A stretch of DNA of 32,098 nt from Nemertoderma westbladi (lineage: Eukaryota; Animalia; Xenacoelomorpha): contig JAUCBJ010007466.1 in the NCBI GenBank assembly GCA_032718475.1, positions 1 through 32,098 on the forward strand. The letters are read 5' to 3'. The notes under the pieces are model-generated. The model was not told the origin of the DNA. It saw only the letters and a program-made list of their open reading frames with translations, and made no database searches. Shown piece by piece: positions 1 through 32,098 of this stretch. Position numbers and translations under genes: made by a program. Every line of letters starts with the position of its first letter. The first letter of the stretch is position 1.

Positions 1-57
1 TCTAGAAGACATTCTAATTTGGCGGGTTAAACTGCCAAAGGTCTGAAAGCGCGAACA
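1..57 (+). repeat. 3' end (U5) of an upstream A-family LTR copy, head-to-tail with the next LTR
   Basis: Matches 1099-1155 and 14436-14492 with about 4 substitutions and ends in ...GCGCGAACA. After one G, the sequence continues into LTR sequence homologous to 13836 onward. Confidence 0.8.
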
Positions 58-58
58 G

Positions 59-1155
59 TGTTTTAGTGGACATAAAAAGCCATTTCTTCTGTATGTGTAC
101 TTTAGCGGACATAACTAGCAATTCTATGTCGCAATACGCTAAATCCTCTTGAAACAGTGTAGTTACTATGACGACAGCTAACAGCTGATCTGTACACGTG
201 TAGCTTTTCCCTTGTTCTCTGTCGTTTCTTTGTTCGGTCAACCAATCAGAGCGATTCTCCTATTATTTGTACAGAAACCTCCGGGAAATCGCGCAATGCA
301 TTATGGGTCAATGTTTACCTTTTTCCACAGCCCAGAAGACCGGCTTTGGAATCTCTGTGTTTTCAGGCTTTAGCCCAACATTAGTAGGCTTAATCACAGA
401 AACGTATATCTGTTATCTTACTTACTTAACAAATCAATCATAACTACTCACCTAATCATATTGTCAACTACAAACACCGCAATTTTACTGCTATTTACTG
501 TCGGTTATTCATTATATCAGTTGATGGAATATTATTATATTGGATAATATCGATAAATTAATCATAAAACCCTCAATCTTCTTGATATACTGAAGGTAAG
601 AGAGACTGGTTACATATAACGATTGCGACTTACATTAAAGTGGTTTTGAAGTGAATCTAATGCTATTTCATAGGAACTACATGTATCGGTCGTTGTTCTC
701 TTTATATGTGACTAAATTAGTGAAGGTCGGCAGATCGGTGTGCAGCATTGTGCAGTAGTGTGTATGATTGTTATTGATAACAAAGCATCTCCTAAAGAAT
801 GCGCTATATACGTGAATCCATAGCCATCCCGTTGTGTCTAGTGCAAGTCATAACTCTGTTTACATATTTAGAGCGCCACATCCTAAAGGAACTGTTAATA
901 TTTCCCGAAAGTGAATAATATTTGTCAGAGATTATATATTACGATCAGTCAAATAATACAGTAGGCCTACACCGCAATAAGGTTAGGCTTCCGAATCCAG
1001 TCTCCCGGGTATATCCAGTGGGTGAATGGTCGCGCATAGACTGGCTTCGGCTAATGTAGTGTATCAAATACTCGTCATAGGCTAAAGTCGATTTATTATC
1101 TAGAAGACATCCAAATTTGGCAGGTTAAACTGCTAAAGGTCTGAAAGCGCGAACA
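59..1155 (+). repeat. 5' LTR of element A (lacks the first ~96 bp of the full LTR)
   Basis: Aligns to 13836-14492 with about 8 substitutions by eye, plus a 440-bp deletion in the 3' copy. Ends ...GAACA. CCAAT box at 242. Confidence 0.9.
405..416 (+). promoter_or_regulatory. Candidate self-primer segment in LTR A (TATATCTGTTAT)
   Basis: Exact reverse complement of 1156-1167. The homologous site in LTR D (31041-31051) complements D's own post-LTR sequence. Confidence 0.7.
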
Positions 1156-1167
1156 ATAACAGATATA
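1156..1167 (+). promoter_or_regulatory. Non-tRNA primer-binding site of element A (ATAACAGATATA)
   Basis: Starts at the first base after the LTR terminal CA, has no TGG, and is complementary to 405-416. Confidence 0.7.
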
Positions 1168-1486
1168 ACTTCAATAAATACAGTTTAATATTGTTCTGGT
1201 AAGAACAATAACAGTTATTGCTTCTGTATTGCAGTAGGCAATAAAGCTGAAGTACCGGTCAACCGGTACCCAGTAGGCCTGACTACCTAACCACCCGGAC
1301 CGGTACTTACAGCCGTACAGGTACAGCAGTATTATTTCGATTGTGATATATTGTATATTGTAGGCTGTTAGGGGATTAGGGATTGATCACCCCTTATTCC
1401 TTTGTATGGTTTACTTATTTCTGTCAGTTTTATTTATTTGTAGGCTAATATTGAGCAGAAGACATGTAAGCCTGCTCAGATTGTAC

Positions 1487-1945
1487 AGATAATTTGTAGG
1501 CTGGACTGTTGTCTGACTGTTGTTAAGTCTGAAGGGACTGTAGTGTGTGTAGAGCGTATGTCCGAAAAAGTACTATTTAGGAAAGTAGGGGCTTCCAGTG
1601 CTGTGAGGTAAACCCCCTCGAAAGAATAAGTCGTACTACTCGGTTAGAACGCATACTAACTAACCATTTCAGAGTCTGCATATACTGTAGTTTGTTTAGG
1701 CTTGATAGTAGTCTGCCAGCGTTTGGTCTGTATTTTGTTTGTGTAGTCTGTACGGGTAGCGTAATATTTCTTATTTAGATAATTTGTAGGCTGGATTGTT
1801 GTCTGGCTGTTGTTAGGTCTGAAGAGATTGTGGTGTGTGTAGAGTGTTTGTTTTTTGTAGTTTGTTTAGGCTTGATAGTAGTCTGTCAGCATTTGGTCTG
1901 CATTTTGTTTGAGTAGCCTGTACGCGTAGCGTAATATTTATTATT
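1487..1945 (+). repeat. Diverged local direct duplication in the A leader
   Basis: AGATAATTTGTAGGCTGGA... occurs at 1487 and 1777; TGTAGTTTGTTTAGGCTTGATAGTAGTCTG... occurs at ~1686 and ~1856. Confidence 0.8.
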
Positions 1946-2143
1946 CAGAGTTTATGCGATTATTCGCAACATTCATATCCCCAAGTTTATTCCTACAGTA
2001 ATTGTGCTTGTTATATATACCGTTATAGTTAAACTAACCCCGGTACTACATCAGGGCTGCTTGGCGTAGGTAAAGACTGGAGATTTTGTGCTCCGGTCAC
2101 TCCGGCAGATACCGTGGTTCTCTTAGCTGTACAAGTATTTTTA

Positions 2144-2950
2144 ACTGCTGATTATTTGTTATACAAGTACTTGTACCTAATCTAGGGTTTAGTGTACAGT
2201 GCTTTCTGAAGGTAATTAGTGTGTAGGCAGTATATTTGTGTTGTAAAGTGGTTAATAGGCACGTTGGCTCTGGTAGGCCGCGGTAATTAACTTCTAGGTA
2301 GGAACACTCTGTGAAACATAACGTAGTACTTATAGCGATACGGCTATAAGTCGTCAGACGGTGGTATTTTTCCTATCTGGACAACGCAGTATATTTACTA
2401 CTGCTTATTATTTTCAAATACCGTAGTATCCTGTCCGTTGCAATAACCAGATATTCTAACCCTTTGTTAGGCTGGTTTGTAGATTTCTTGTAAAATTACC
2501 CTAAAAATTCGTACGTGTAATTTTTGTGATTATTTAGAGATTGTAATCTCACCCCGCAATTACGTAATTCGTAGATAAGTAACTTAGGCAAGTAGAAATT
2601 ATTTGTTTAGTGTCCAACAAGTAGCACTGCACTGCGAGCGCACAGCTTCTGTGTAGTGACTCCTTCCCAAAAATAATAACATCTATTTCAATATAGTAAC
2701 AAAACCCATTATACGGGTATATATATATTATAAATCAACTCAAACAGATTTATAAAATAGTAGGCCTGTCATACAACAATTAGGTCTTAATATCAGTTGG
2801 ACTACTGCTTAAATAACGGTAATAAAGTAACGCAAAGTAACCAAGCAACCCCTAAAATTCAGAAATTCAATTATTCTAAAATAATTGACATACCGGTATT
2901 TACAATAGGCTTATTATATTTATTTCAATAAATTTAGGCTGAACTTATAT
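2144..2950 (+). repeat. ~810-bp direct repeat, copy 1 (A leader)
   Basis: Colinear and highly similar to 4562-5370. Confidence 0.9.
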
Positions 2951-3389
2951 ACCCGGTACCGGTATTGTTACGGTATATGGCGCTGTATCCACATTATTAG
3001 CCATTATGCAGTATAATATATTAGTCCGTTATACTGTACGCAATATTAGTCCGTTGTACTGTACGCAATATTAGTCCGTTGTGCAGCATAATATTTTAGA
3101 TAAGATATAGTAGCGAGGTGATATTTAGATAGGGAAACCAAAACGCCCATATATTTGAATCCATCCATTTTGTATAATATGTAGCCCTACCTACGTAATT
3201 TTGTATTAGGATATATGTAGTTAGTTCCAGGGTAGCAAGTTTAGTCGGACCCTGGATTTTGTGCTTGCTGATATTAGCATCAATAGGGCTAGCATAGGGA
3301 CGCTGTCCTGGCCATTCAGCAACCAGGGACATGATCCATTACCATATATGGTAATAATTTGAGGGCAATAGGGCTACAATCCGGCCTCC

Positions 3390-3500
3390 TTATTGGACTA
3401 ACTGCTTCCAGGTTGGCCTAATGCTAGCGCGGACTGGAGAGCCAATAGGAGAGCGATTGAGTCACCCTATTGCATCACCCCACTCGGATCACCTATAAAT
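3390..3500 (+). promoter_or_regulatory. Candidate internal Pol II promoter in the A leader
   Basis: ATTGG at 3392, CCAAT at 3442 in a context (CCAATAGGAGAGCGATT) resembling the LTR's CCAATCAGAGCGATT, and TATAAA at 3494. Confidence 0.4.
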
Positions 3501-4561
3501 TGGCGGTGTGCCGGTAGAGCTGTACCTATTCCACCAACCTTACTGCCTTATAATTCGTATTTCTGCAATTTGCTATTTTCGATAATTTCTCAAAATGATT
3601 TGCTAGTGCGATTATTCTTGATTGTGTTTCTCAATTAATCCTATCGATTACTGCTAATTACAACCGGAACTATGATTTCTACCTTTTGTTAATGGTTCTA
3701 TGTGATTCCTTTCTACGCAATAATCCTAAGGGATTTCTGAGACTGTCAGACTTTGTGATTTGCAATGCGCCGCTATGGTAGCTATTAGCATAATGGAGGG
3801 CTAAGGTGCCAGTAGGCGGTGGGCACATTGGGGGGTTGAGCGACTAAGGGAGAGCGGAGGATTCAAAGGCGGGCAACGCTGGCGGGGGGTCACCGTTGCG
3901 GTCGGGTAGTTCACACTGTGGTATGCAGACCAATCGCCGGTACAGTAATTAGGGGGCTGATAATCCAGGTTTCGTCTCTAGTTAGTATTAGGGGGCAGGA
4001 ATCGGGTTAGTTAGGAATCCTATGTGTACTCGGGAGAGGCCTGCACGTATCACAGCGTTGAGTGTGGAGTACGAATAGTGAATCACACAACTGTGGGCTA
4101 TACAGTAGTTAACTGCATAATTGCGAACTGTGATTGCTGACGCTGATTGGTGTGTTATTGAAGTGTGCCTATGATTATGAATGTTTAGGTAGGCGCCCCT
4201 TTCTCTTTGATTGATTTCTATTTCTTAGTTACAACAAATAATTACTGATTAGGTCAAAGTAATTCGGCAATTTAGGCTATTACTAGCGAAACCTGTTGCG
4301 TAATAAATTAGAATTACGCATTCTGGAACTCTTAGTAATTAGTACGCTGTTACATATTTGTGACTGTAATTGATTAGTAAAAATTAAGAATTAGTACGCA
4401 GCATAGCGGAGAGTAGCTAAGGTAATAATTAGAGTACTGTAAACTATTCACGCTGAGCGGTTATTTGCATTAGCGGGCAATCAGCTAGATCGCACTATTC
4501 GGTACACACAATACGCTAGTAATTCTACTACTAATACTAATACTAATATTCTAATACTAAT

Positions 4562-5370
4562 ACTGCTGATTATTTGTTGTATAAGTACTTGTACCTAATT
4601 TAGGGTTTAGTGTACAGTGCTGTACGAGTGTATTAGTGTGTAGGCAGTATATTTGTGTTATAAAGTGGTTAATAGGCACGTTGGTTCTGGTAGACCGCGG
4701 TAATTAACTTCTAGGTAGGAACACTCCGTGATACATAACGTAGTACTTATATATGACATGAGATATAAGTCGTCAGACGGTGGTATTTTTTCTATCTGGA
4801 CAACGCAATATATTTACTACTGCTTGTTATTTTCAAATACCGTAGTACCCTGTTCGTTGTAATAACCAGATATTCTAACCCTTTGTTAGGCTGGTTTGTA
4901 GACTTCTTGTAAAATTACCCTAAAAATTCGTACGTGTAATTTTTGTGTTTATTTAGAGATTGTAATCTCACCCCGAATTGTATGTAATTTGTAGTATTAA
5001 GTAACTTAGGTAAATTAGAATTATTTGTTTTAGTGTCCAACAAGTAGCACTTCACTGAGAGCATACAGCTTCTGTGCAGTGACTCCTTCCCAGAAATAAT
5101 AACATTTATTTCAAATATCGACAAAACCCATTATAGGAGTATATATATTATAAATCAACTCAAACGATTTATAAATAGTAGGCCTGTCTTACAACAATTA
5201 GGTCTTAATATCAGTTGGACTACTGCTTAAATAACGGTAATCAAGTAAAGTAAAGTAACCAAGTAACCCCAAAAATTCAGAAATTCAATTATTCTAAAAT
5301 AATTGACATACCGGTATTTACGATAGGCTTATTATATTTATTTCTATAAATCTAGGCTGAAATTATACCG
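4562..5370 (+). repeat. ~810-bp direct repeat, copy 2 (A leader)
   Basis: Colinear with 2144-2950. Preceded by a (CTAATA)n microsatellite and followed by shorter TACCGGTATT-containing subrepeats to ~5560. Confidence 0.9.
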
Positions 5371-5691
5371 GTATTCTGTAATTAATTCTAGTCCATAATT
5401 ATACTTATATATACTATAAGTGTAAGCTGTATTGCGGTATTCACGATAGGCCTATTATATATTTATATATATTTGTGCTGAAATTATATACCGGTATTCT
5501 GTGACAAACCTAGTCTGTAATAATACTTATATATATACTATAAGCATACCGGTATTCTAATACATTGTATATATATCACGTTACACTGAGTAACAGTATC
5601 GGTAATTAATTACTAGGCTAACAGTGATACTGAATTACTAGACTTGCTTTAACTGTAATATAGCAGTAGGCATTCAACTGTGCAAACAAAC

Positions 5692-7641
5692 ATGTCTGAC
5701 ACAAAGCAAAACCTGTCAGACAGTCTCCTAGATACGACCATCTGTGACCCAGACAGGAGTGTGGAACGTGTGAGACCGAAGTTCAACTCACCTCCTACTG
5801 TAAGAAAGATCATCCCTCCAGTAGTAGTAGTATCAGACCCTAGGCTAGTCCAACACCGTAGGTCTATCATAGGCACTCGAGCTCAAGTCAAGCGAGACCA
5901 AGAAGCAGCGGAACAGCAGCAACACTCGAGCCGAGAACTTATTTCTCAGCGGTCCGACAGCTCCAGTAGTGCAGATACTGTAGAGCTGACACCCGAGTGC
6001 AGAGCAAAGATGGCGGATGCGGTTTATTCGGATCCCCTTCTCATCCTTCCTGCAGCCGTACTCACTAGGGTATTGATTGCGGTGGAGGAACACCAGATTG
6101 ATTGGTCGAGAAGTAAGCGATCGACCAAGGATAGTTATGCGGGATACACAAGGGAAGAACTGAAGTCTATTGTCGAGTCGCAATGGAACTTCCCTGGACC
6201 CGGACTCCCGTTTGACTTGTCTGAGGCTGCCTGGGAAGACATACACAGGATGGGAGTGACAAAGGAAACCAGCGATCCAGCTGAGTGGAAGAGGTCAGCA
6301 GCAGGATACGTACAGGGATTCTTCAGCTCTATGGAGCGATTAGAGGAACAACTGTTTCGACAACCCCAAGGACCTCAAGAGCAGGGAGAGCTGCTTTATC
6401 AAGTTAGAGAAAGAATTCTAAGAATCAGACTAATCTTATCGGCCTTTGAAGAAGCTTCAAAAAGAAGATAAGACACGTCGTTGCATGTTGCCGTAAAGAC
6501 TTGGTTTCAACGGGTGAGCCTCCAGGTTCAAGGAACGGCCCAGTGGAAAGCTCAGCTGGCTGAACGCTCAACCCATGGAGAATCAACAGACGCTACCTTT
6601 TCCCAAGTGGAAAGCGAAGCGACTGCAGAGAAACCGCATAAGAGGGATGCTATTGACATCTATCTGTCAGACTATCAACGCTTTGTAGGTGATGAAGAGT
6701 TGAGGAGAAGGCTGGATGGACTTAGCCCTAATAGTGAAGGAGCCAAGCTTGTGTTGGACGCAATCGATGCGGATATGAGAGCTGCGAACCAAGCTAAATT
6801 TGATGAACGCCTCCGCATCGCTAGAGTCCAAGAAGAACAAGTAAAGAAAAAACGTATAGAAGACAGAAAGATAGCAGCAGCGGCAGCAGCAGAGGCAGAA
6901 GCAGAAAGAAACGTGGCAGAAGTGGAAAGAAAAGCGGCAGAGGCAGCGACAGAGGCAAAAGTGGCAGCAGGAAGAAAAGCGGCAGAAGCGGAAAGAAAGC
7001 GAGCAGTGGCAGAAGCAGAATGAAGAGCATCTGAAGAGACCACCCAACTAGAGTTGGAAAATATTCAAGAGAATCAAGACTGCATAAATAAACAGTTAAC
7101 AGCTAGTCAAATGCAGATGATGAGTCGATCTACTCCCAAAAGACAGGGATATACATCATCTGAGGAAGGCGATACCACCGATACTGAAGGCGGAGGAAAT
7201 AGATCTCGTCTAAGCAGACGTAGAAGAATATCCCACCATCAGAAATTGCCTGATTTGCCCCCAGCTGTTAGAAGGCAACTAACTAACACAAACTTAGGTA
7301 GTACAGAACCCACAGACCAAATAATTAAAATAGAAAGACTCCCTACTATAGTAGATGAGCCTGAAATAATTAGGCCTGTTCTCGAAGCCACCCCTTCGGT
7401 GATAGAGACACCTGTACTCCCTGAACCTACCTCTAAATTCCCTCTGCACAGCACTAAGCTACCTGTGCCCCACAGAACCACCCTTGAAAATGTTCATGTC
7501 CTGGACTCCGAGCGAAATATTAATGATTTGTCGCCCGTTGTCCCTCGTCCGCCCGCTACAACGTTGGCGCCTCCCGCTTCGGCGGTCGAGTGGGTAGATG
7601 AGGGACGAAGGGGGAGATGGGTCTCCTGCTCGGGCAGCTGA
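5692..7641 (+). pseudogene. gag: N-terminal extension of Pao Gag (acidic, Ala/Glu coiled-coil and Pro-rich parts), broken by stops
   Basis: ORFs 5680-6471, 6481-7023 and 7054-7641 share one frame and are separated only by single stops (TAA 6469, TGA 7021). First ATG is at 5692. A frameshift at ~7600 leads into the Gag core. Confidence 0.7.
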
Positions 7642-9134
7642 GGGAACACCATTCCCGCTCCTCTCAGCAAGTCCAGGAGATGGAGGGGACTGTGCAGCAG
7701 TTAAAGGGAACAATTAGAGAGAGTAGGTTAGAGTTGCAAGAAGTGCAGCAAAGTATCGCGTTAGAACGCGATAAATTAGTAAATACACAAAAGGGTATAC
7801 CACCACCCCCTGTAACAATGTGTCAACCTGTTAGGTCTGAAGTATTTCATGCGCAAGGTGTGGAGCCTACACGCATCTATACTGCTAGTGAAGTGGAAAC
7901 TCCTATAGTAAACCCTATTAAGGGTAATTATAAACCTATTGATAATGATATTCCATATAGACCTGATCATAATCCGAGAAATTTATATACCGATAACTCG
8001 ATATTAAATAACACGATGGCCCAAGAAAGTTTTACGCGTCAAATGGCTAGAACCGAAGCCCGTCAAGCGGTAAAGGTGGGAGAGATCGTCAAGTTCAATG
8101 GAGATGAGATGAAATGGTTACCTTTTAATGAATATTACAAAGATAACATACAGAACTCTGTGCTATCAAATGGAGAGAAACTTAGATTCCTCATCGAGTG
8201 CTTGGAAGGATCTCCCAAGTTAATGGCGTTAAAGTTTATTGGACATCCCGATGGATTAAGACAAGTTTGGGATACCCTAAACATCAGGTATGGTAATAGG
8301 AATAACATAGCTAGGTATTTGTATGCAAAATTGGTAGCGCCCCGAAAATTCATTAGCAGCGGGATTATAGAGTTTTCCGATGAGATTCAGGAGATCTGTA
8401 GACAATTAGATTGGCTAGGTAAGTCTCATGAATATCAGAGTTCTATGGTTATTGGAGCTGTAGCCTCTACTTTACCGAAGGGTGGAGTAGGTACACGCTG
8501 GGATAAGAAAGTGTTATATATGATGGAACAGCAACGACGAGACCCTACCATGGCTGATCTCATGTCATTCTTAGATGGAGAAGTGAAATTACAGCTCCTA
8601 AAGCAGTCCAGAGAGAAGACACCGGGAAACAAGGTAAGTGAGAAACCCGTTTCTAGGAGAAAGGTAACACCAGTGTGTTATACCGACGATGGCGAAAGCC
8701 AGGCTTCTCAAGGAGAGGACAGCGGGAAAGACACTGAAAGATCTTATTATGTCAACAAAACGCCCAAAGACGTAAGTAAATGCAGGTCTCGAACCAATGA
8801 CAGGAGAGAACAGGTAAGAAAAACCCCTCCTACGTCTCCTAAGAGAATTCAGGTAAGAAAGCCCGAAGAAAGAACGAGTGTGCACAACGTTACTCAAAAT
8901 AAGGTAAGTAACATCAAACCGAAATGTGCGCTGTGTGACGGGCCCCACCGTTTGAATGTGTGTGATGAATTCCTGAGGAAATCACTCAAGGATAGACGTG
9001 AAGTCATGTGGGATAAGCGGTTGTGTTATAATTGCCTCAGACGAGGACACCAACGGCGAACCTGTTACTCCGACGCAAGGTGTGCAAAGTGCGGCGCAAA
9101 ACATCATATCTTGTTGCACACTGAATTCGAATGA
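7617..9134 (+). pseudogene. gag: BEL/Pao Gag core (DUF1759-like capsid region plus three zinc knuckles)
   Basis: Motifs KFNGDEMKWLPF and EKLRFLIECLEG...WDTLNIRYG. Knuckles CALCDGPHRLNVC, CYNCLRRGHQRRTC and CAKCGAKHHILLH; the triple knuckle is typical of Pao. Confidence 0.92.
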
Positions 9135-9185
9135 AACAGCCCGAGTCAGGTAAGTGATTCCGAACTACATGTCCAATTCAGTGAT

Positions 9186-9866
9186 GTGAACGACACTGAC
9201 CAATGTTCTGAGATGGAAGGATTCTATACGGACGAATTCTCCGACGAAGACGAATCCTGTTACATGATAAATACCGCAGTGTATCGAGCACTTACGTATG
9301 AAAAGGACACTGACAGCGAGCTCCCCCTAACTACTTCTGACCGACAACCATCTTGGAAAGCACCAACTTCCAATGTAGGAATCCGAGAATTTCCTGTAGT
9401 ACAGTTGAGGGTCCACGGACCTAAAAGGAGTTATATAGTGAACGCCCTCCTTGACTCCGGTAGCACAGGAACATTCATCGACAAAGAACTAGCCGAAGAC
9501 ATCTTTGCTGGACAACCCAAGTTCCGAACTAAGTTAAACATGTCAGGAATTATGCAGGTTTGGAAATCTACAGTAATAGCGGATTATTATGTAGGTGCGT
9601 TGTCCACCCCCCAGGATGAACTAGGAGAACACAGTATAAGGTCAGTAAAAATGATGGCGATAAAGAACTTCGCTACCAGCCAAGTAGAACCTTATAACTG
9701 GGATGAGGACGATTCCACCCAGCAGCTTAATATACCTAGATTCAACACCGATTACCCTGGAGTGCAAATACTCATCGGCCAAAATGCGCATGAGGCGCTT
9801 GAGAATTGGAGAAACGGCCTGCTCAACCGCAACCATTACAAGCCTATACGGGAAGAACTAGAGTAG
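9186..9866 (+). pseudogene. Pao aspartic protease
   Basis: VNALLDSGSTGTFI catalytic motif and VQILIGQN. Same frame as gag after a single TGA at 9132. Frameshift at ~9800. Confidence 0.9.
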
Positions 9867-10663
9867 GTTGGTACTTTACTGGCCCTTCCCGTAGAACTCT
9901 AATGGAAAGGTTACCAAAAGAACAGGTATATCAAGTAAGTGAATGGGAAGTGGAGAGCAGTGAAGTTGACGACCCAACTGAGGGAACACCATACTCCTCA
10001 GATAATGACGATATTAACTCCAATGTAGATCAATGGAGATATTGCCCCGAGACGATTAATCTAGCCGACATCGCTTCCAGAGGAGCAACTCCTCAAGAAC
10101 TGACAGATACTCCAGACTGGTTAGGTGGACCCGACTTCCTAAGTAAAGAAGATGAATGGCCTCCCCATCTTACCACGGCTGAGATTAGACAAGCCAAGGG
10201 AGCGGAGAAAGTCAAACCTAAAACCCGGACGAGTAAATCAAGGTTATTTAAACCCGTGATAGATCTGTCTGTACTACCCATTGCCAGGGACGACGCTCTG
10301 GATCTAAACTCCCCCACTGCGAACCGATCTGTTGTGGAGATCAGAGAGAGAGACTGGAGATCTGGAACACCAGACGTCTCGCCGGGACTCTCACCTCCCC
10401 TGCCGGGAGCGATGGACCACTATAGATCCTGGAATCGGCTTTGTAAGGCCATTGTGTATTTGAAGCGATGTTTCTATCGTCACTATTCCAGGACGAAGAG
10501 GAAACCTGGAATTGTCTTCGAGACACAGCAGCTCAATCGCCCAGTTGGTCGTTTATGTTTACTGGAAAGAGGCCGAGAACTGTCCGGAAACTATGGAAGG
10601 CAAGATACTCTTCCCACGACCACCTCCCTAATCCAACAAACATCTAGGGACTCCCCAACGTAA
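9806..10663 (+). pseudogene. pol: Fused Pao pol remnant: post-protease motif, post-RNase H region and integrase C-terminal tip
   Basis: TRVGWYFTGP; QWRYCP..NLADIASRG..WLGGPDFL; SWNRLCKAIVYLKR; RPVGRLCLLE. No YxDD RT motif, RNase H core or DDE core. Confidence 0.85.
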
Positions 10664-11495: not shown

Positions 11496-12313
11496 AATAT
11501 TAAATAATAAAATTTACGGGAATAAATTTAAATTCATATTGTAATGAATTTGATAAATTGTCATTTTTATACAATTTATAACATTCCCAAAATTCCATCA
11601 ATTAATAGATCATGGGAGCGGAGATTCACCTTATTAAGTGTATTAGTGTGCGAGAATCTCCAATATATAGTCAATAGTCGATAAAATTCATAAAATCATG
11701 TATAAAGAGGAATATTGACAATTAAAGAATTACTATTAAATAGCATCCCAGATCTGTATGCATGAGAATTACCCTAATTCTACTGCTAGCTTTCCATAAT
11801 GTCACCATGGCAACAACCACGATAGAATTAGAAGTGAGTTAAAAGAACAATAAAGCTTGCCCAGCCCATTGAATAGCATAAGGAATAAATAGCACACTGC
11901 TAGTATCCCAGGATACCCAATAATAACGTGGCATTCTGGAAGGCACTGACTAACGGACAAATGGCCTGAATGTGTGCGATTTGTGACAGTTGTGTGGAAT
12001 TTGTGCGTTTATAGGTGAATGTTACTACTAAAGTGTGTTTACAGTAGCGAGTCGCAATTGTGAAAGTAGCCCTAACTCTCCAGTAAGAACCTGAAGTAAA
12101 TCTAAGCCTTTGGGACGGACGGTGGAGTGACTCGCGCTGGTTGTTGTGGTCATTGTGCAGCTACGACGTTGGTGATAGGCACATCGGCGAAAGTACACCA
12201 GCGCTGAGGATCTTGCGCTGTCCGGGGGCCGAGAGGGGTAGGCAGCGACGCCCGCTAGCCTAAATATAAACTCATTATAATATTGATAAACTCATATAGC
12301 AGATACGACTGAG

Positions 12314-13661
12314 TTGATAGAAGATGATCTTGGTATCAGGGAGCGATATATTCTACCTTTACAAGCGTTTGTTGATAGCTTGATACGCTGCGACGCTGGT
12401 CCAACTACTACAGAGGACGATGGTTGTTATATCGAACCGCCAATGTCCCAGGAGCAACTTACGCGTGAATTGGACTATAGAAAATTCACTGCTCACTATA
12501 CGCATCGTAATGGTACGTATATGGACTTCTTAACTACTGGTCATCCTATCGATTTGCACGATACGGACGATATCGACACTGAAAGGGAAATTGTACTATT
12601 TAAATATCCTACCCAGCGGAGTCGGAACGATAAACTGAAAATCGAATGCGAAAATTCTATTCGAAATCGACTCGAAAGAGAAGACGTTAAAGAACCGGAT
12701 AAACGCAGTAACTCCAACGTATATTTGGAATTCTTGAGAGAAACGTTGTAAAACCGAATAAATATCACCCGCGTTTCCCTTACAAGACGTGCGTCTTTGG
12801 TATTATTGCGATGAATGCCCAAGACCCAACCAACAAACGGAAAGACATAAACATCCATAGAGACGTTGCTTTAAACGCGGTTACTCGCTATATTTACGGG
12901 AGTTTCGAGCGAAACTTGTTCGATGTATCACCTATGCTCGCTCGATTCAAACAATCCTTAAATAAACCTATGATCAGAGTTCCGGAATACTCGGTCAGAC
13001 CTCCTCATTCCCTAGTTAGACCTCAGACTCTTGATCCTAATAGTATCACGGATCCTCCCGAACTGTACTCACTGTTCAAAGATCTAGTGTTACCCGAACA
13101 GTTAGTCAGTGGCACTCCGGTTGTGGGCTCCCTAAATATTCGCCCATCTTACCTAGTCGGATTTGGACGCGGACATCTAATATCGTCATTCAACCGTATC
13201 ATCGTCCCTGTTTAACCCGATACAACCTGTCACCGAGGCGGAGGAGAGAGTTGTACGAAACGCGTTGGACACTATTCGTCAAAAGGGCGGAAAATAAACC
13301 CACAATTGTTTAGAGAAACGTAAATTGCAGCAGCAAGTCCAAGCGGTAAACGAATTAACTTTATCTCAGTTCGATCAGGAAATTCAGAATCTCTAAGAAA
13401 ATATCGAACTTGGACGACCCTATTCTCTGCAAGAGTTTTGGACGAACGCATCCAACGATAAGCGGAGGAAAATCAGCTCGAGGAGAAGCATATCGAAATG
13501 GACGAGACATCGACCGTAACCCTAAACCTTCAGATGCAATTGTATTGCACCCTTTACCCAAGTGTTATAGCCCTCCTAGTAAAGTGGCTCGCCCCAAAGA
13601 GAAAAGGACTCTTGCTAGCCTCAAAAAACTGCGTAAACGCCGTCCGCGCATGAAAAACTAA
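12314..13661 (+). pseudogene. Fragmented accessory 3' ORF of element A, unknown function
   Basis: Three consecutive + strand ORFs (145, 134 and 83 aa) in a coding-like composition island between pol and the purine tract. No motif recognised. Confidence 0.5.
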
Positions 13662-13731: not shown

Positions 13732-13739
13732 GGGAGCGG
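13732..13739 (+). promoter_or_regulatory. Polypurine tract of A (GGGAGCGG)
   Basis: Directly abuts TGTAAAAG, the LTR start also seen at 30558. Confidence 0.75.
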
Positions 13740-14492
13740 TGTAAAAGCTTTTGCGGAATTAGCCGGTTATTTTCCCCGCAAAGTACTCTGTAGTTGGTTT
13801 AACGGGCATAAAAAGCCATTTCCTTACTGTACCGGTGTTTTAGTGGACATAAAAAGCCATTTCTTCTGTATGTCTACTTTAGCGGACATAACTAGCAATT
13901 CTATGTAGCAATACGCTAAATCCTCTTGAAACAGTGTAGTTACTATGACGACAGCCAACAGCTGATCTGTACACGTGTGGCTTTTCCCTTGTTCTCTGTC
14001 GTTTCTTTGTTCGGTCAACCAATCAGAGCGATTCTCCTGTTATTTGTACAGAAACCTCCGGGAAATCGCGCAATGCATTATGGGTCAATGTTTACCTTTT
14101 TCCACAGCCCAGAAGACCGGCTTTGGAATCTCTGTGTTTTCAGGCTTTAGCCCAACATTAGTAGGCTTAATCACAGAAACGTATATCTGTTATCTTACTT
14201 ACTTAACAAATCAATCATAACTACTCACCTGTTAATATTTCCCGAAAGTGAATAATATTTGTCAGAGATTATATATTACGATCAGTCGAATAATACAGTA
14301 GGCCTACACCGCAATAAGGTTAGGCTTCCGAATCCAGTCTCCCGGGTATATCCAGTGGGTGAATGGTCGCGCATAGGCTGGCTTCGGCTAATGTAGTGTA
14401 TCCAATACTCGTCATAGGCTAAAGTCGATTTATTATCTAGAAGACATCCAAATTTGGCAGGTTAAACTGCTAAAGGTCTGAAAGCGCGAACA
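13740..14492 (+). repeat. 3' LTR of element A, with a 440-bp internal deletion
   Basis: TGT...ACA termini. Lacks the equivalent of 454-893 (CT microhomology at the junction). Homology to the other LTRs stops after GCGAACA; the 3' flank is CAATG. Confidence 0.9.
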
Positions 14493-14587: not shown

Positions 14588-15105
14588 TATTTGTCTCAGC
14601 CTACAACCCAGCCCTCTCTATATAAAGAAGAATGTATGAAGGAGGTTGTTATTATATCTTGTCCCCACGATTAATTAATGAACTACTGTACTTATTTGTC
14701 TCAGCATACAACCCAGCCTTCTCTATATAAAGAAGAATGTGTGAAGGAGATTGTTACTATATCTTGTCCCCACGATTAATAATTAAAATGAAGTACGTAT
14801 TTGTCTCAGCCTACAACCCAGCCCTCTCTATATAAAGAAGAATGTGTGAAGGAGATTGTTAGTATATATTGTCCCCACGATTAATAATTAATGAAGTACG
14901 TATTTGTCTCAGCCTACAACCCAGCCCTCTCTATATAAAGAAGAATGTGTGAAGGAGATTGTTACTACAGTATATCTTGTCCCACGATTAATTAATGAAG
15001 TACGTATTTGTCTCAGCATACAACCCAGCCCTCTCTATATAAAGAAGAATGTGTGAAGGAGATTGTTCTATATCTTTTCCCCACGAATAATTAATGAAGT
15101 ACGTA
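14588..15105 (+). repeat. Tandem array of five ~104-bp units
   Basis: TATTTGTCTCAGC.TACAACCCAGCC.TCTCTATATAAAGAAGAATG... starts at 14588, 14693, 14798, 14901 and 15005. Confidence 0.95.
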
Positions 15106-15253
15106 ATTAACATACCATTGCAGATTGTGTAATAATGCAATATATTGTTACAGGACAAACAGGGAAAACGTGAAAGTATAATATCTAGTTGTTTAGTGCG
15201 TGGGGATATTGGTTTTGTATTGTTGAGGACATTAATTATTTGTGTTTGTCGAA

Positions 15254-15466: not shown

Positions 15467-15710
15467 AGTGAAAAATCAATACCTAATGGGGCTCGAACCC
15501 GGCACCTAGGTTTCAAACTTGTGGTTATCTTCAGCGGGGTGTGTGCGTCCTAAAATATCTGAGCTACCAGGACCGGATGAAGAATTCGCCATGGAGTGGG
15601 ATATCATACTTAGTCCAAATCACTCAAAGGAAAGAGCAACGTTATTCCCGGAACTTTGAAACCTAGGTACCGGATTCGAGCCCCTATAAGGTCGGTTAAT
15701 ATTTTTCACT
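15467..15710. mobile_element. Inverted pair of tRNA-derived (SINE-head-like) units
   Basis: 15488-15517 and 15655-15684 are reverse complements with 2 mismatches and include the B box GGTTCGAGCCC. A-box-like TAGCTCAG on the minus strand at ~15559-15566. Outer inverted repeat AGTGAAAAAT/ATTTTTCACT. Confidence 0.6.
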
Positions 15711-16667
15711 ATGGAGAGCATTATCTTATTATCATTATTATATTGCCCTAATAAATTATATTATTAATTCACCATCACTCACTCTACAACATTTAATTTA
15801 TTATTATGTAAAGTTATTTTTACACAAGCGCGAAATCGCTCAAAAGTCCGCGCTAACTAACGCATGAAGTGTCTCCTTGAATGAATGGCTTACTAACAAT
15901 CTTACTACCAAAAACATTCACCACACGATAGATGAATTGAACTCGGTACTTAGAGATTCCAAGTCCAACGCACGACCAACTTCGCCACTATGCTGTATTA
16001 TACCTTATTACTAAAACCTAACTGGTACTCGAGAGGTGATCGATGAATTCTAGAGGTGTAACTACGCTGACCTAATAATAAGACTATAACATGGCCAAAA
16101 CAACGACAAACAAATGACAGCATGTCCTGGAATATAGTGTCGTTATTCAAGTACATGAACCCCCCCCCCCAAAATTTTTCTACATATCGTAATGAGATTG
16201 CATGAAATTGACCATGTACTCGAATAACGGCACTATATTCCAGGACATGCTGTACTGGTACTGGTGTGAAAAAAGTGCAAAGCTCTCCTGAAAACGTATC
16301 CCCCACATATAGAAAAAGTGAAATTAAAATTGCAACTTTCACATTTTTTGAAAATTGTTCAGCACTTGAAATTTTATAGTTCTGCAAAAAATTCAATATA
16401 TGGTATATGGCAAATTATGGTAGCTATGGTGTTTTTATGGAGATTGTGAATTATATACTAGCTAGTAATAGAAAAAGTTTAAAACTGTTTTTTTTTATAA
16501 ATTGCGTATGTATACTGTATGTGTTGTTGATTGGTTAACAAGCCTAAATAATTATCCTAGATAACAGCTGGATCTCATTCAGGGACACTTTGCTGAATTT
16601 AGATTAAAAACTGTTCTAGAACATTAACCAAAATCAAAAAAGCACTAAAAAGTTGCTATCATTAACC

Positions 16668-16865
16668 GGCCAATTCGGTGATTCGGTCCCGTACAATTCG
16701 GTCCTAGGACAATTCGGTCCTTGGACAATTCGGTCCTAGGACAATTCGGTTCAGGACAATTCGGTCCCATTTATTTAGTGTTTTTGGACCGAATTGTCCG
16801 GGACCGAATTGTCCGGACCGAATTGTCCGGGACGTAATTGTGCGGGACCGAATTGTCCTACATCC
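16668..16865. mobile_element. Foldback/MITE-like element with modular inverted arms
   Basis: About 6-7 copies of GGACAATTCGGTCC, a short AT-rich spacer, then 5 copies of the reverse complement GGACCGAATTGTCC. Confidence 0.85.
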
Positions 16866-17902
16866 AAAATATGCTTGTCTCTGAAGTCCTTTGAGGACAT
16901 TTTAGAGCGGTAGTTTTAGAGAATTTTAAATTTAGAGCTAAAAACGATACTTTTTGGGCACGTTTGTATATAAAATAGGCCTTTATTTTTTATTTCTCGC
17001 AAAATTTAAGTCAAAATTCCTCAATAACATTGGATGTAAACATAAAATGAACCGGTTTACAAATTTGAACTCAATAAATTCAAAACTGTTCAAGAAATAG
17101 TCGTTTAGACAAAAGGAGGCCAGATGCAGCCATTTTGGGACTTTAAAAAAAAACTGGATTAGCCATTCTTAAAATAACAACCAGACGATGCTTGGAAGCA
17201 CTACGCTCAATTTACTCAACTTTAAGCCGTGGAAATATCACATTTTTATATTGTAAATAATGGTTAGTTAACAATCAAAGGAAGGCCTTATGAAGGCTTA
17301 GTTAGTTGTTAGCTAATTAGCAGACATGTTATAGTCATGTTAAATCTGTAGTTTCGCAATGTTAACTATAGGGGGGCCTACTTAATTAAAATAATATAAA
17401 GAATCGTAAAATCGTCCAAATTACATTTCGCATCTGATCAATGAGAGGAAAATGTATGATATGGAACAACGACTTACGACTATCAGTATAATACAGTATG
17501 TATTATAATTGAGGTGCATCGGTGACGCATGAGTTCACAATCCGCGAGCTGGGAAACCATAAGCCATCGGCCGAGCTACGACAAATGCAACATTTGTCGC
17601 CGGGAAACTATCAACCACAAGCTCATATGAATTCGGTTTCTTGAAATTCATCCCGAAACATTCTCTCTCGTTCTCTCAACTTTAGGAAACCAATGTTCAT
17701 CCACTGTAGTTTCTCCAGTCACTCAAGCTTCACTTAAAAACGAACTAAATCAACTTAATCAAATTAATATTGATTGTGCTAATTGTATAGTAAAGTTTGA
17801 GCAACCCAAATTCCATATTAATAGATAGTCGGGCAGAATCACGGAAATCGAGCAACCGTAATACATACAGTAATTGTTATCATACTACAACAACAACTAA
17901 TA

Positions 17903-19132: not shown

Positions 19133-21260
19133 CTAGTTCGCTCTTCCCGTCTTCTGGAACCATCTTAGTTCTTTCCCTCTATCATTGTCCTGTCTGGGCC
19201 GCTTCCTTCCCTCTGGCTTGTCCTCTCTGAGACTCCTCAATCTCGTCGTTACCGCATTGATAATTCCTGTTGTCAATTCTTTGGGTGCTGGTGTTATTAA
19301 CTCCCGGTAACGCTTTGCAGGTGGCCCTTCCGAATGCCCCTCCTGCTTCCCCCTGGTAGTGTCCCACAAGATCATTTTCATGGTTTGCGGCACGTTTTCC
19401 GCCAGAAAATCCCTGAACTCGCCTCAGTTTTCTGGCATCCACCTGCCAAGTACCTCTGCGTATTGATGACTCCTCCATACAACGCCGCTGTCGCTACCTC
19501 CTGGTATGTGAATGGCAGTCTCCTCTTGATTATCTCCAGATGGGCTTCCTGGTTGATGTTGAAGAAACCCCACCAGAACTCCTGGGCCTTCATTCTCTGT
19601 TGCGTCATAATGCCAACGTCGGCCCACTCCTCGGAGATCTTAAACTTCTCCTCGTCGTCCATCCAGTTGCTCTGGCGCCCATAGTGCCCTCGGAAGTTAC
19701 ACTTTGAGCAGTGGTTGTGCAGCCTCGGACACGCTCCCATCCTCTGGCTCGACTCGTGGCAGTAGAGGCAACTCGTCCCCTTCTGAAATCGATACAAACA
19801 GCTCTTTTCCTGTTGAGTCAGCCTCCCGCAGTAATCACAGCCATGTATCAACGCATCCCGCCCCAAGTCGTCTTTTGCCCCGAGCGGTCTCCTTTGTCTG
19901 TGGAGCCGTTGGTAGGCAAACTTCTGGACATTAACGTCTCTATCCATATCTATGTTCTTCTCCCACCTTGGCATTGTCTCCCCAAACACTACCCGTGGTG
20001 CCATTCCTGGTTGCTCGCCCAACCTGATGATGCTCCCCGCGAAATCCATCGCCAGATCCTCGTGCACACAGGTCCACTTGCCGGGCTTATCCCAGAAGGC
20101 CTTCGCCCTGCTGGCCGTCACCACCCTCCCGCCCACCCAGTCCGTATTTGAGTGGCCGATCCTCTCGATGGGCGGCATCTCTCCGAACTCATCGTCATCT
20201 TCCTCCCTCGTTGGGAGTGGATCCAGACCCAGTATCCCGGTTGACCCACTATGTCCCTTTCCGCCTTGGCTTCTACCCGTAACTTTCCATCCTTCCTGTT
20301 CCCTTGGTCTCTTTCTTACAGAATCGCCCTCAGAGCCCGCTGGCATGGGCATCACTTGCAATCCTGATGTCAACTGTTTCGGCGATTCTTCCGTCCATCC
20401 TAGCTCCTCCGCCAGATACTCGCCCGAGCTCCCTGATCCCCACCTCAGCTCGTCCAAGTTCTGGGTCTCGAACCCATAATCCTCTCCCCTAATCTCCGCC
20501 TCTCTCTCATCTTCCTCCCTCCTTTCTCGCCTGGCATCTTCTTCCAGTCGCTTCTCCTCAAGTCTATCCGCTTCCAGCTTCTCCCATCTCTTGTATGGTG
20601 TATCCACCTCTCTGTCTACTAGGTGCCGGCTGTTGTAGTACACCGACTCGCCCTTCAGCCCCGGGTGGTCTACCAGACCTTCGAAGGCCGCCTTAAAGGC
20701 TCTTCTGTAGTTTAGAGGTGATCCTGATAGCAGAAATGCTGTCGGCTCTTTTCCGATCACCACAGCCATGAATAGGTTTAGTAAACCTATCATTATCCAA
20801 TCCTCCTGTAGGATATATCTCTTCTGATATATCTTTATCGCTCCTCTCTGGAACTGATACACCTCCTGTTTCCCTGGCCTTGCTCCCCACTTCAGTGAGT
20901 TCGCCAGCTCCGCTCCGTACTCCTCCCGGAACTTACCCCAGTCCTTCGGCTTGTGGCAGACGAGCCCCATGAGCTGACCCATTGCCACTGCTCCGCAATG
21001 TCCTGTGTTCTCTATCAACCCCAACCCGTCTGGCCCTGTCATGGCCATATAGACTACTTGCATGTCCAGGAGGTCCGACGATTCTCTCCACATCGTCGCG
21101 GATCGCCGATCCTACCTTCACCGTTGTCTTCTCTCTTACTAGGTCTTGCACGCCCTTGGCAACCGGTTTAACTTAGGCCCGCTCATCTTGCCGTATGTTC
21201 CTAGATCGAATAGGAATATGTCTCCATTTGGTGCAGCCAAATGCAGTAGTATGGTTCTAG
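19133..21260 (-). pseudogene. Accessory 3' ORF of B: DEDDy/WRN-like exonuclease remnant, charged linker, triple zinc knuckle and unnamed motif
   Basis: 571-aa ORF 19378-21093 with frameshifted upstream pieces (LLHLAAPNGDIFLFDL; VQDLVREKTTVKVGSAIRDDVERI) and a downstream piece 19133-19393. Contains YQKRYILQED, CDYC, CLYC and CSKCNFRGH. Confidence 0.7.
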
Positions 21261-22244
21261 CGTATTACGGCTTGAACCGCTCCTTCCAGGTTGATGTTTG
21301 GTTTCCTTTTGGCATCCTTGCCAATTCCCCTAAGGAAATCCCCTTAGGCCCTCTTATACGCTACCAACTTCTTGGTATTATACCAGCTGGAGCTGTAACT
21401 GAGCAGCCTATCCGTCGGGTTGTCGCATGGTTCTTCTGATTTTGGTGGCACCTTCTTGATCTCCCTCACCATCTGGCTGTATATATCTTCCCCTTCTGAA
21501 TCTTCCCCCACTTCTTCTGGTACTACTTCCTCTGAGCCTGGGTCCACCTTCCTCATTGGTGGCCAGGCTGATCTATCATTCAGGAAGAGTTGCCCGTGCT
21601 GCCACAACACTTCCTTCTTCAAGAAAGTGTGACGTGCCACGCCCCTCGATAATAAATCTGCTGGGTTGTCGTTGGTAGGGCAGTAATGCTACCTATCTAG
21701 GTCGGTCGTCGCCCTTATCTCGTCTACCCTATTCGCGACGAATATAGGGTATCTCATCTTCTCGTTATGTAGCCACCCTAGCACTACCATGGAGTCCATC
21801 CAGTAGTGTGTCTCCACTATGTTGGGTATAGTGTCCATCAAGTAGGCTGTGGCCCTTACTCCTAACCTCGCAGCTGTCAACTCGAGTTTCGGGACTGACG
21901 CTGAATCTGGTGGTGTCGACTTCGCTTTACTAAATGCAAGTCTGGGCTTGTGAGCCCCCTTTCGCTGTACCAGATAAATTGCCGCTCCGTATGCTTCCAA
22001 AGATGCATCAGAGAACATGTGTAGGTCCAGGTCCGTCATGTCCCCGTCCGGGAAATACACGCGTGGCATGCTGTACGTCCCCATCTGTTCTAAACTTCCC
22101 GTCCACTTATTCCACTCTTTGCTTACTTCTTCCGGGACCTCCATATCCCACTCGTCCTTCAATTTGTATACTTTCTTTGGTATCTGCTTCCCCATGACTA
22201 ACAATGGGGATGCTAGGCCTAAGGGATCGTATATCCTTGCTATG
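21261..22244 (-). pseudogene. pol: Pao pol of B: RT-RNase H connection, RNase H (Peptidase_A17 family region) and downstream segment
   Basis: IARIYDPLGLASP; LHMFSDASLEAYGAAIY; SVPKLELTAA; WMDSMVVLGW; FVANRVDEI; HYCPTNDNPADLLSRG; SSWYNTKKLVAY. Contains premature stops. Confidence 0.92.
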
Positions 22245-26105: not shown

Positions 26106-26181
26106 CGCACTTACTAGGATTCGAACTCAATACCTACTACACATATAATTTCCAACGCTCTACCGACTGAGCTACTGAACC
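26106..26181 (-). other. tRNA-like sequence (Pol III A and B boxes) inside the U3 of LTR C
   Basis: Minus strand GGTTCAGTAGCTCAGTCGGTAGAGC...GAGTTCGAATCC. Perfect D arm (GCTC/GAGC); no acceptor or anticodon stem. Confidence 0.65.
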
Positions 26182-30557: not shown

Positions 30558-31819
30558 TGTAAAAGCTTCTGTGGGATATAACTGGCCCCTTTTGCTTCGC
30601 AATCCAGTTTCCCCCCAGGCGCTGGAATACTCTAAAAAGGTTCTCTAACTGTATATATATTCCCCTCGCCCGCAAGGTACCGTTACAGGTGTTTTAACGG
30701 ACATAAAAGTCATTCTGCTATATACGTGTTTTGGCGGACATGGTAAGGCAAAAAACCTGTAATGCACCAACTACCTTTCACAGCTTAGCCGTGATGATTC
30801 ATATTACGACATCTAACAGCTGGTTGCTGACATGGAAACATCCATTGGACGCATAGTTCTTTGTTTGGCTTGAGCCAATCAGAGCGATTTTTCCTGTCGA
30901 CGTGTAGCTTTTCAGCCGATCATAAGGAGAGTGTTCAGTCTTACTGTTTTTTCTTGATACTTTGTTGTTATTGCTGTCTAAGCCAGAAACACCGGCTTTT
31001 TGGGAAGAACTCTAGTAAACTGCTTAAATTATCGAGAGTATAAACTGTTACCTAACTAACGAACCTAACTTAAATCACTCAATAACTCACTGATTAACGT
31101 ACTCACTTAATTTAATTGCATTAATCATATTGTCTGTACTGTTATTTTACCGTCAGTTATTAATTGTACCTATTTGTTGATGGAAATATTGCTCTTTGGA
31201 TAATACGGATAAATCACCCAAATTCCCAATTTTCTTGATACACTACAGGTTAGAGAGACCGGCTATACATAACAATTGCGATTTATATTAATGTGGTGTG
31301 TATTGAATCCAATGTTATTTAGCAGACCCTACGTGAGTCAATCGCTGCTCTCTTTATGTGTGATCAAATATACTGACGGTCGGCAGAATAGTGTGTATGA
31401 TTGTGATTGGTAACAAAGTATTTCCTAAAGAATACGCTTTATACTTCAATCATAAGCAGTAACGTTGCGTTTTAGTATAAGTCTTAGTTCTGTTTAAATA
31501 GATAAAGTGCCACGTCCTAAAGGAACTGTTAATATTTCCCGAAAGCCAATAATATCTGTCAGAGATTAATTATTAACGATCTATCGAATAATACAGTAGG
31601 TATACACTGCAACCTTACACTGCAATAATAAAATTTAAGCATCCGAATTCAGTCTCCCGGGTGTAGATCCATCGGGTGAATGATCGCGCATGGGCTGATT
31701 TCGGCTAGTGTTTTGCGTATTAGCATAAATATTGTCGTATGCTAAAGTGGTTTTAATTAACTAAAAGACATATAAATTTTGGCAGGTTAAACTGCTAAAG
31801 GTCTTCAAAAGCGCGAACA
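30558..31819 (+). repeat. 5' LTR of element D
   Basis: TGTAAAAGCTT...GCGCGAACA, the same termini as 13740-14492. 5' flank is GCTTT. Confidence 0.88.
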
Positions 31820-31830
31820 GTAACAGTTTA
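31820..31830 (+). promoter_or_regulatory. Non-tRNA primer-binding site of element D (GTAACAGTTTA)
   Basis: Immediately follows the LTR CA and is the exact reverse complement of 31041-31051 (TAAACTGTTAC). Confidence 0.7.
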
Positions 31831-32098
31831 CTTGTATTGCAGTGTAGGTATTAAATACAGTTTAATACTGTTCTGGCGAACAGTAACAGTTTACAATCTT
31901 ATTGCAGTAGGCAATAAGGTTGCAAAATACCGTAGTGACTGGTAAAACTGAACCGGTGCTTCTGTAGGTCAGTAGGCCTAACTGTCATCACCGGTACCGG
32001 TACTGCTGTACAAGTACATTTAGTATTATTCGATTTTGATTATTGTATACCGGTAGGTCTCGATATTAAATCGGGGACGCCTGGTTTTTATTGGGATT

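Follow-up and report, generated by a model that had tools for sequence, protein, structure and literature searches.

A non-autonomous BEL/Pao element of Nemertoderma westbladi with a candidate LTR-encoded primer for reverse transcription

BEL/Pao elements are one of the main groups of LTR retrotransposons in animals. The ICTV description of the family, Belpaoviridae, gives them an 18-nt primer-binding site (PBS) that matches a tRNA in complement, together with priming by that host tRNA, which is described by assumption, and it calls their replication poorly understood (PMC8742986). Self-priming is described for the Tf1/sushi group and predicted for Tcn1 and the copia TAR elements in the accessible text of PMC6317226. 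The accessible parts of three BEL/Pao papers (PMC554778, PMC3118150, PMC6238403) make no mention of a PBS or a tRNA, and BEL/Pao self-priming does not appear in the available portions of PMC3601003, PMC6934838, PMC5445492, PMC8220671 and PMC4558846. A literature search, made mostly at the level of titles and abstracts, returned neither BEL/Pao self-priming nor priming from a splice joint; subscription papers, Repbase reports or supplements could hold a prior note.

Element A, from Nemertoderma westbladi, shares with Tf1 and Tf2 of Schizosaccharomyces pombe, and with the Tf1/sushi and Tcn1 chromoviruses of the Ty3/gypsy group, the absence of a tRNA site and the presence of 11–12 nt beside the 5′ LTR that are complementary to its own LTR, as far as the accessible text of PMC10085805 describes these systems. 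According to the same partial source, Tf1 also has a U5 stem closing beside the PBS, as predicted for A. The element differs from Tf1 in belonging to BEL/Pao and in the location of the pairing partner, which lies ~740–770 nt from the LTR end and holds only a putative position at the RNA 5′ end. Moreover, the third (leader-to-LTR) duplex of the Tf1 pretzel is not predicted in A, the leader of A contains a second copy of the LTR end and PBS, and in its BEL/Pao relatives two exons must be brought together at a predicted splice joint before the partner exists. The plant Ty1/copia TAR lineage (Houba, Osr-1) is likewise predicted to self-prime, and its definition, at least 10 bp beginning 0–5 nt after the LTR, also describes A and the sister LTR termed B; A belongs to another superfamily and another kingdom, and the TAR lineage has no splice-joint form in the accessible text of PMC6317226. 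Fungal GalEa copia elements and bivalve TRIMs similarly combine the absence of a tRNA site with a hairpin just after the 5′ LTR, although the available parts of PMC5445492 and PMC6934838 give no LTR complement to their site, which in A is exact and co-varying. With its DUF1759 gag, triple zinc knuckle, protease, LTR of near 1.2 kb and purine tract before the 3′ LTR, A resembles Belpaoviridae; unlike the tRNA PBS of the ICTV description (PMC8742986), however, A, B and 17 of 18 relatives lack a TGG site.

Organisation and family placement of element A

The window analysed here, meaning the whole stretch of 32,098 nt, is the forward strand (1–32,098) of contig JAUCBJ010007466.1 from assembly GCA_032718475.1 of N. 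westbladi. Within it, A reads as a non-autonomous derivative of a BEL/Pao retrotransposon without RT and integrase (Table 1). Its LTRs have TG..CA ends and a purine tract ahead of the 3′ LTR, as expected for BEL/Pao, and the purine-rich run is a probable polypurine tract of the BEL/Pao type. The true start of the LTR is probably the first nucleotide after this run in the 3′ copy (13740), and the first ~95 nt of the 5′ copy have probably been replaced by the end of a neighbouring LTR. At window position 57/58 this LTR end meets the 5′ LTR of A ~95 nt inside its presumed start, an arrangement of nested or tandem insertions of the same family. Based on the agreement of the two LTRs, the 440-nt deletion aside, the insertion of A is young.

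Between the LTRs of A, integrase, RT and the bulk of RNase H are missing, and BEL/Pao polyproteins match across gag, protease and the post-RNase H region (tblastn). The coding order is that of BEL/Pao, with a DUF1759 gag bearing a triple Cys-His box followed by a protease, and these proteins support the BEL/Pao identity proposed in an earlier note on this DNA. The picture of A given there has to be corrected, as the end of another LTR breaks into the 5′ LTR close to its start, and the element has neither RT nor integrase. Neither the gypsy-type gag-pol nor the chromodomain integrase of the Tf1/sushi chromoviruses was found in A, whose coding remnants are BEL/Pao. In a gag-protease tree, a quick and weak one with no gypsy outgroup, A sits in the company of BEL/Pao-type proteins, its long branch lying outside the main clade of splice-joint elements. 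The tRNA-complementary PBS of the ICTV description is lacking both from A, where the first TGG after the 5′ LTR stands at +42, and from B (~+54). On the strength of its proteins we class A as BEL/Pao, one that departs from the described tRNA-PBS trait.

Searches with the gag of A yielded distant homologues alone, most of them at about 30% identity and none comparable in length, and its LTR-end pattern was found in no stretch of the metagenome or viral contigs; a closely related element with its DNA was not obtained. The family is abundant in its host, with 10,026 contigs from one run aligning to positions 1–1500. A non-coding leader of 4.5 kb separates the PBS from gag and contains an 820-nt direct repeat (2144–2958 and 4562–5373, 91%) without TG..CA ends. 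The LTR of A also has a donor-like site at 593–601, weaker in B, and acceptor-like sites lie at ~5660–5670 ahead of the gag ATG at 5692; splicing between them could rid the mRNA of A of both its PBS and its 4.5-kb leader. Extra ORFs at 12290–13215 of A are unrelated to those of two other BEL/Pao elements in the window.

Table 1 Coordinates of the features of element A, sister LTR B and the relatives
Feature	Position	Strand	Remarks
3′ end of another LTR of the same family	1..57	+	93% identity to 1099–1155; abuts the 5′ LTR of A
5′ LTR of A	58..1155	+	650/658 aligned bases identical to the 3′ LTR; CA end
CCAAT-containing block	242..256	+	kept in both A and B; lies ~160 nt upstream of the partner site
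Predicted self-primer segment of A	405..416	+	complement of the PBS; cut predicted at 416/417
Predicted U5 stem	1030..1152	+	1030–1042 with 1138–1152, closing just before the PBS; inner hairpin 1116–1123:1130–1137
Putative PBS of A	1156..1167	+	flush with the LTR end, no TGG; complement of 405–416
Leader hairpin with second copy of the LTR-end/PBS motif	1189..1214	+	predicted, P 0.99 in A; 5′ arm also matches the real LTR–PBS junction
BEL/Pao gag, broken (stops and frame change)	5659..9134	+	DUF1759, triple zinc knuckle; PF03564 E 9e-12, above cut-off
Aspartic protease, with remains of the post-RNase H region	9135..10663	+	PF13650 E 0.003, below cut-off; tblastn with BEL/Pao polyproteins
Purine-rich run before TG	13732..13739	+	same layout ahead of the LTRs of relatives
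3′ LTR of A	13740..14492	+	440-nt internal deletion; second copy of the partner site at 14182–14193
5′ LTR of B (start approximate)	30651..31819	+	72% identity to A over 952 columns; inside the integrase gene of another BEL/Pao element
Partner segment of B	31041..31051	+	homologous to 405–416; overlaps TATAAA at 31039
Putative PBS of B	31820..31830	+	11/11 pairs with 31041–31051; 1/5000 shuffles reaches 11
Second copy of LTR end and PBS in B	31876..31894	+	19 nt identical to the first; B hairpin region 31866–31894
Relatives with a predicted splice-joint match	5′ LTRs		L004, L006, L007, L018, L020, L021, L025, L030, L034, L035, L040, L044, L049, L051, L054, L059, L061

Complementarity between the putative primer-binding site and the LTR in A and B

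The LTR segment at 405–416 is the exact reverse complement of the 12 nt directly following the 5′ LTR (1156–1167), forming 12 of 12 Watson–Crick pairs with an energy of −11.8 kcal/mol. The duplex measures exactly 12 bp with mismatches in the flanking pairs on both sides, places T416 opposite A1156 and stops sharply at 405. Its boundary is fixed by two further copies of the LTR end (1–57 and 14436–14492), which share the same last 57 nt up to 1155 and then diverge. When the LTR was dinucleotide-shuffled 5000 times, one shuffle gave a match of 12 bp or longer, and out of 4445 start positions in 1156–5600 position 1156 alone reaches 12. The earlier note had reported this exact complement, its termination at the LTR boundary and the lack of a TGG tRNA-type PBS; all three are confirmed. 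The TGG at +42 in A and ~+54 in B was rejected as a PBS, being too distant from the LTR end and followed by differing letters, and ARAGORN found no tRNA gene within the window. In both elements the nucleotides directly following the 5′ LTR are complementary to the own LTR over more than the at least 10 nt typical of Tf1-type self-priming, with 12 bp for A and 11 bp for B. The resemblance to the ATAAC start of the Tf1 PBS, also raised in the earlier note, is real for A, whose PBS opens with the same five letters as in the accessible text of PMC11042837, and is not conserved, as that of B starts with GTAAC.

Comparison of A with B revealed that four of the 11 pairs in B differ from A on both sides; three of these are clustered and possibly stem from one event, leaving at least two independent events. 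The two PBSs differ at 5 of 12 positions within one host, tracking the LTR segment, and the duplex energies are −11.8 and −12.1 kcal/mol for the cognate combinations against −6.1 and −5.7 kcal/mol for the crossed ones. We scanned B for variants in four host runs, representing three samples at most, with low cover after 31827, in the far half of its PBS, and contigs too short to phase site and PBS; the 28 variants at 40% or above all lie between the site and the PBS of B, none within either. Host contigs diverge straight after 31052, and one host contig carries a B-type PBS that would lengthen the match to the site of B to 13 bp. The distance from the partner to the LTR end is 739–768 nt in A and B. 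In both, the PBS is flush with ACA, and the predicted primer would end in AT in A and in AC in B, each before a C. A and B probably represent an intron-less, contiguous form of a design in which the LTR encodes the primer.

Folds were predicted on 900-nt RNAs and are weak evidence in either direction. The U5 stem has pair probabilities of 0.94–0.98 in A, whereas in B the inner hairpin is present and the outer stem is only partly formed. Of the duplexes of the Tf1 pretzel, the upstream stem is predicted in A and partly in B; the leader is predicted to fold on itself. An alternative leader-to-U5 pairing of 8 bp (1125–1132 with 1181–1188; in B 31787 with 31858) is conserved and absent from the predicted fold. 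The leader hairpin shows co-variation, T1191/A1208 of A corresponding to C31868/G31883 of B, and the site, the PBS, the hairpin arm and the second copy change together at four positions between A and B. According to the fold model, the duplex of A forms with a probability of 0.85–1.0 if the RNA starts at 405, and of 0.01 or less for starts at 300 or 350. The site of B is predicted to pair with the second copy, and the real PBS has a probability of 0.0 even with the second copy removed.

Matches to predicted splice joints in distant relatives

To collect relatives, we used an alignment of 44 BEL/Pao polyproteins, which yielded 68 metagenome loci, corresponding to the best 80 of 629 confirmed stretches in 8 of 64 parts of the collection; the same alignment detected no relative among the viral contigs. 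Forty of the 68 loci were examined for LTR pairs, leaving out 28 short or pol-only loci. An LTR repeat was present in 19 and no pair in 21, and in one of the 19 (L017) the repeat lies in pol, so that 18 usable 5′ LTRs resulted. The median integrase identity among these 18 loci is 48% (top 67%), indicating distinct families.

Only one of the 18, L012, has a TGG site (56–80), a canonical TGG-type PBS next to a short LTR. In the other 17 the PBS matches, over 10–15 bases, the exon–exon joint that would result from excision of a predicted intron from the LTR of the same element, a pattern first recognised by eye and a count obtained with thresholds relaxed after inspection of four misses (16 of 18) and with the start of L051 corrected (17 of 18). 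The self-complementarity proposed in the earlier note is kept by two-sided changes in B and, in 17 of 18 relatives, found instead of a TGG site. The introns, predicted from sequence alone, span 71–426 nt and have consensus-type donors, and each match comprises 4–10 nt of exon 1 and 4–7 nt of exon 2. The unspliced LTRs of the same relatives give 5–9 bp, and the joints of other elements mostly 2–4 and at most 9. The 17 relatives carry 17 different sites, each matching its own joint only.

A strict scan requiring a match of at least 11 returned 13 of 36 regions, 12 at an LTR-like end and one spurious, as compared to 0 of 36 reverse-complement controls; the spurious one was in L030, whose real match came with the relaxed thresholds. 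In four of the non-TGG elements an LTR pair sets the LTR end; when every GT-AG combination was tried on them, the best gave 11, 15, 11 and 12 bp, a length equalled in 4, 0, 2 and 0 of 150 shuffles, respectively, and the best joints use consensus-like donors and pyrimidine-rich acceptors, with one tie in L049. In the remaining 13 of the 17 the LTR end was deduced from the joint match itself. On shuffled sequences the relaxed scan produced any match in 83 of 2000 cases, with 0–4 of 100 per locus reaching the observed length. Applied to the whole window on both strands, it gave five matches of at least 11, none at an LTR end, which we regard as background.

The match starts directly after ACA in nine loci and 3 nt after ACA in five; in the others it starts 2–4 nt after a TA-ended LTR (two loci) or after TAAA (one locus). 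In 16 of 17 relatives the last two letters of the predicted primer are AC or AT, as in A and B, and the next base is C in 12 of 17. The partner lies 127–369 nt into the LTR, and acceptor and PBS are 54–248 nt apart; in the 3 of 16 relatives that show a TATA box, the partner lies 142–228 nt downstream thereof. In L004 and L040 both LTRs end in TA instead of CA. A truncated LTR in L031 (1–145), whose donor lies off the contig, shows 5 nt after its acceptor that match the letters right after ACA.

For A, the best splice joint reaches 11 and uses a non-consensus donor inside the site, and for B it reaches 12 with a GC donor in weak context that is not shared with A; the contiguous matches are 12 and 11, respectively. 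We therefore rejected both joints, since the PBS of neither element matches a joint convincingly better than the unspliced LTR. In the gag-protease tree, 16 loci group with proteins of fish, echinoderms, cnidarians, oyster and schistosome, whereas L044 stands outside together with L012. As L012 with its TGG site is sister to the junction-type L044, the PBS type appears to switch within BEL/Pao. A derivation of A by intron loss from the main junction clade is not supported by this weak tree, and the contiguous form of A and B is either independently derived or from an unsampled lineage. Given the long branch of A outside that clade, the relatives support the principle and not close kinship.

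Candidate priming routes and alternative explanations

The pairing of the PBS of A with its own LTR makes it likely that minus-strand DNA synthesis is primed by an LTR-encoded RNA and not by a host tRNA. In Tf1, as worked out in papers by Levin and by Lin, an RNase H cut of an RNA duplex reportedly frees the primer. By analogy, the LTR segment of A, acting in cis or supplied by a second RNA of LTR origin, would anneal to the PBS. A would borrow its RT from an autonomous helper element, whose RNase H would cut at the duplex end between 416 and 417, and the new 3′-OH would be extended into U5. If plus-strand synthesis then recopied the primer into the PBS, site and PBS would stay matched.

A partner at the very 5′ end of the RNA, as known from Tf1, and one placed within R after a longer 5′ stretch are about equally probable. 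A terminal primer is favoured by the fold, in which the duplex forms from 405 and not from 300 or 350, and by the sharp stop of complementarity at the same position. An internal one is favoured by the CCAAT block upstream of the site in A and by the relatives, in which the distances from the LTR start and from TATA make an internal partner probable. Several observations stand against an LTR-encoded primer altogether: the folds modelled for B leave the site and the real PBS unpaired with one another, the duplex of A is lost from starts at 300 or 350, the distance from partner to LTR end in A and B far exceeds that from acceptor to PBS in the relatives, and the site may be promoter DNA absent from the RNA 5′ end, as it overlaps TATAAA in B and starts with TATAT in A.

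The last point leads to the reading that the segment is a TATA box transcribed only in the 3′ U3, the pairing then joining the ends of the genomic RNA for circularisation, as an aid to strand transfer or as a primer from the U3 of a second RNA. The earlier note had entered this as a caveat, and it stands, with TATAAA at 31039 in B and TATAT at 405 in A each following a G and an initiator-like TCA ~31 nt downstream in A. We nevertheless consider it improbable: the version in A is not a canonical TATA, yet its PBS changed along with the segment, and the next TCA in B is spaced at ~38 nt. A CCAAT box usually lies 60–100 nt from the start site, and the ~160 nt found here are beyond this range. In addition, the partner in the relatives spans a splice joint and must hence be transcribed in R. 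Just as improbable is that a host RNA, a tRNA half or another small RNA, acts as primer and the LTR–PBS pairing only hides or regulates the PBS. Such a role would agree with the ICTV view of the family as tRNA-primed (PMC8742986), with half-tRNA priming as known in copia lineages from the accessible text of PMC6317226, with the TGG site of L012, and with the alternative folds suggested by the leader hairpin and the second motif copy. However, within one host the PBS changes between A and B together with the LTR segment, and a fixed host RNA would not co-change with 17 sites that each match their own joint only.

Very unlikely, in our view, is an origin of the LTRs from a Tf1/sushi-type gypsy element with ordinary chromovirus self-priming, into which the BEL/Pao gag-protease would be nested as a fragment. 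The 4.5-kb non-coding leader ahead of gag and the nest of insertions in the window would fit this origin, and A retains no RT for a tree; yet no other LTR pair flanks gag, no gypsy coding remnant was found between the LTRs of A, the purine run before the 3′ LTR is laid out as in BEL/Pao relatives, and the PBS start, ACA and then GT or AT, is common to them as well. Least probable of all is chance or a one-off inverted duplication: although the sequence is AT-rich and only two full LTR types are at hand, this is largely refuted by the shuffles (1 of 5000 for A and B each), the same position in both and the two-sided changes.

Beyond the LTR-encoded primer of A itself, we lean slightly towards a broader model, in which the tRNA primer of much of aquatic BEL/Pao would have been replaced by a spliceosome-assembled LTR RNA. 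Removal of an intron in R would create the 10–15 nt partner of the PBS, and splicing would both license reverse transcription and separate the primer-donor RNA from the intron-keeping template RNA; A and B would be an intron-less, contiguous form controlled by a decoy PBS copy and the leader hairpin. As an intron of the junction form can persist only if the 3′ R of the template stays unspliced, the primer would have to come from a genome spliced only at its 5′ end or from a separate short LTR transcript. This splice-joint form is the more surprising part, compared with contiguous self-priming. If these readings are true, a third superfamily of LTR elements joins those with self-priming, and splicing assembles the primer in the majority of the relatives examined. 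We did not find such a connection of the spliceosome with the initiation of reverse transcription in the accessible print literature. They would also account for BEL/Pao elements without a detectable PBS, imply an escape of BEL/Pao elements from control by tRNA fragments and provide a simple rule for annotation.

The window contains further elements beside A and B. Two other BEL/Pao elements each carry an extra post-pol ORF (19381–21111 and 27560–28795, both on the minus strand) with zinc-knuckle-like motifs, the two being weakly alike (24%, E 0.003). A non-LTR-type RT gene (22198–23745, plus strand) interrupts a BEL/Pao element on the minus strand, separating its RT from its RNase H, and a tRNA-like stretch at ~26110–26180 (minus strand), uncalled by ARAGORN, is possibly the head of a SINE. 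Directly after the 3′ LTR of A, five tandem copies of a 105-nt unit (14588–15109) were observed, and small MITE-like inverted-repeat elements occupy 15488–15684, 16117–16253 and 16681–16875.
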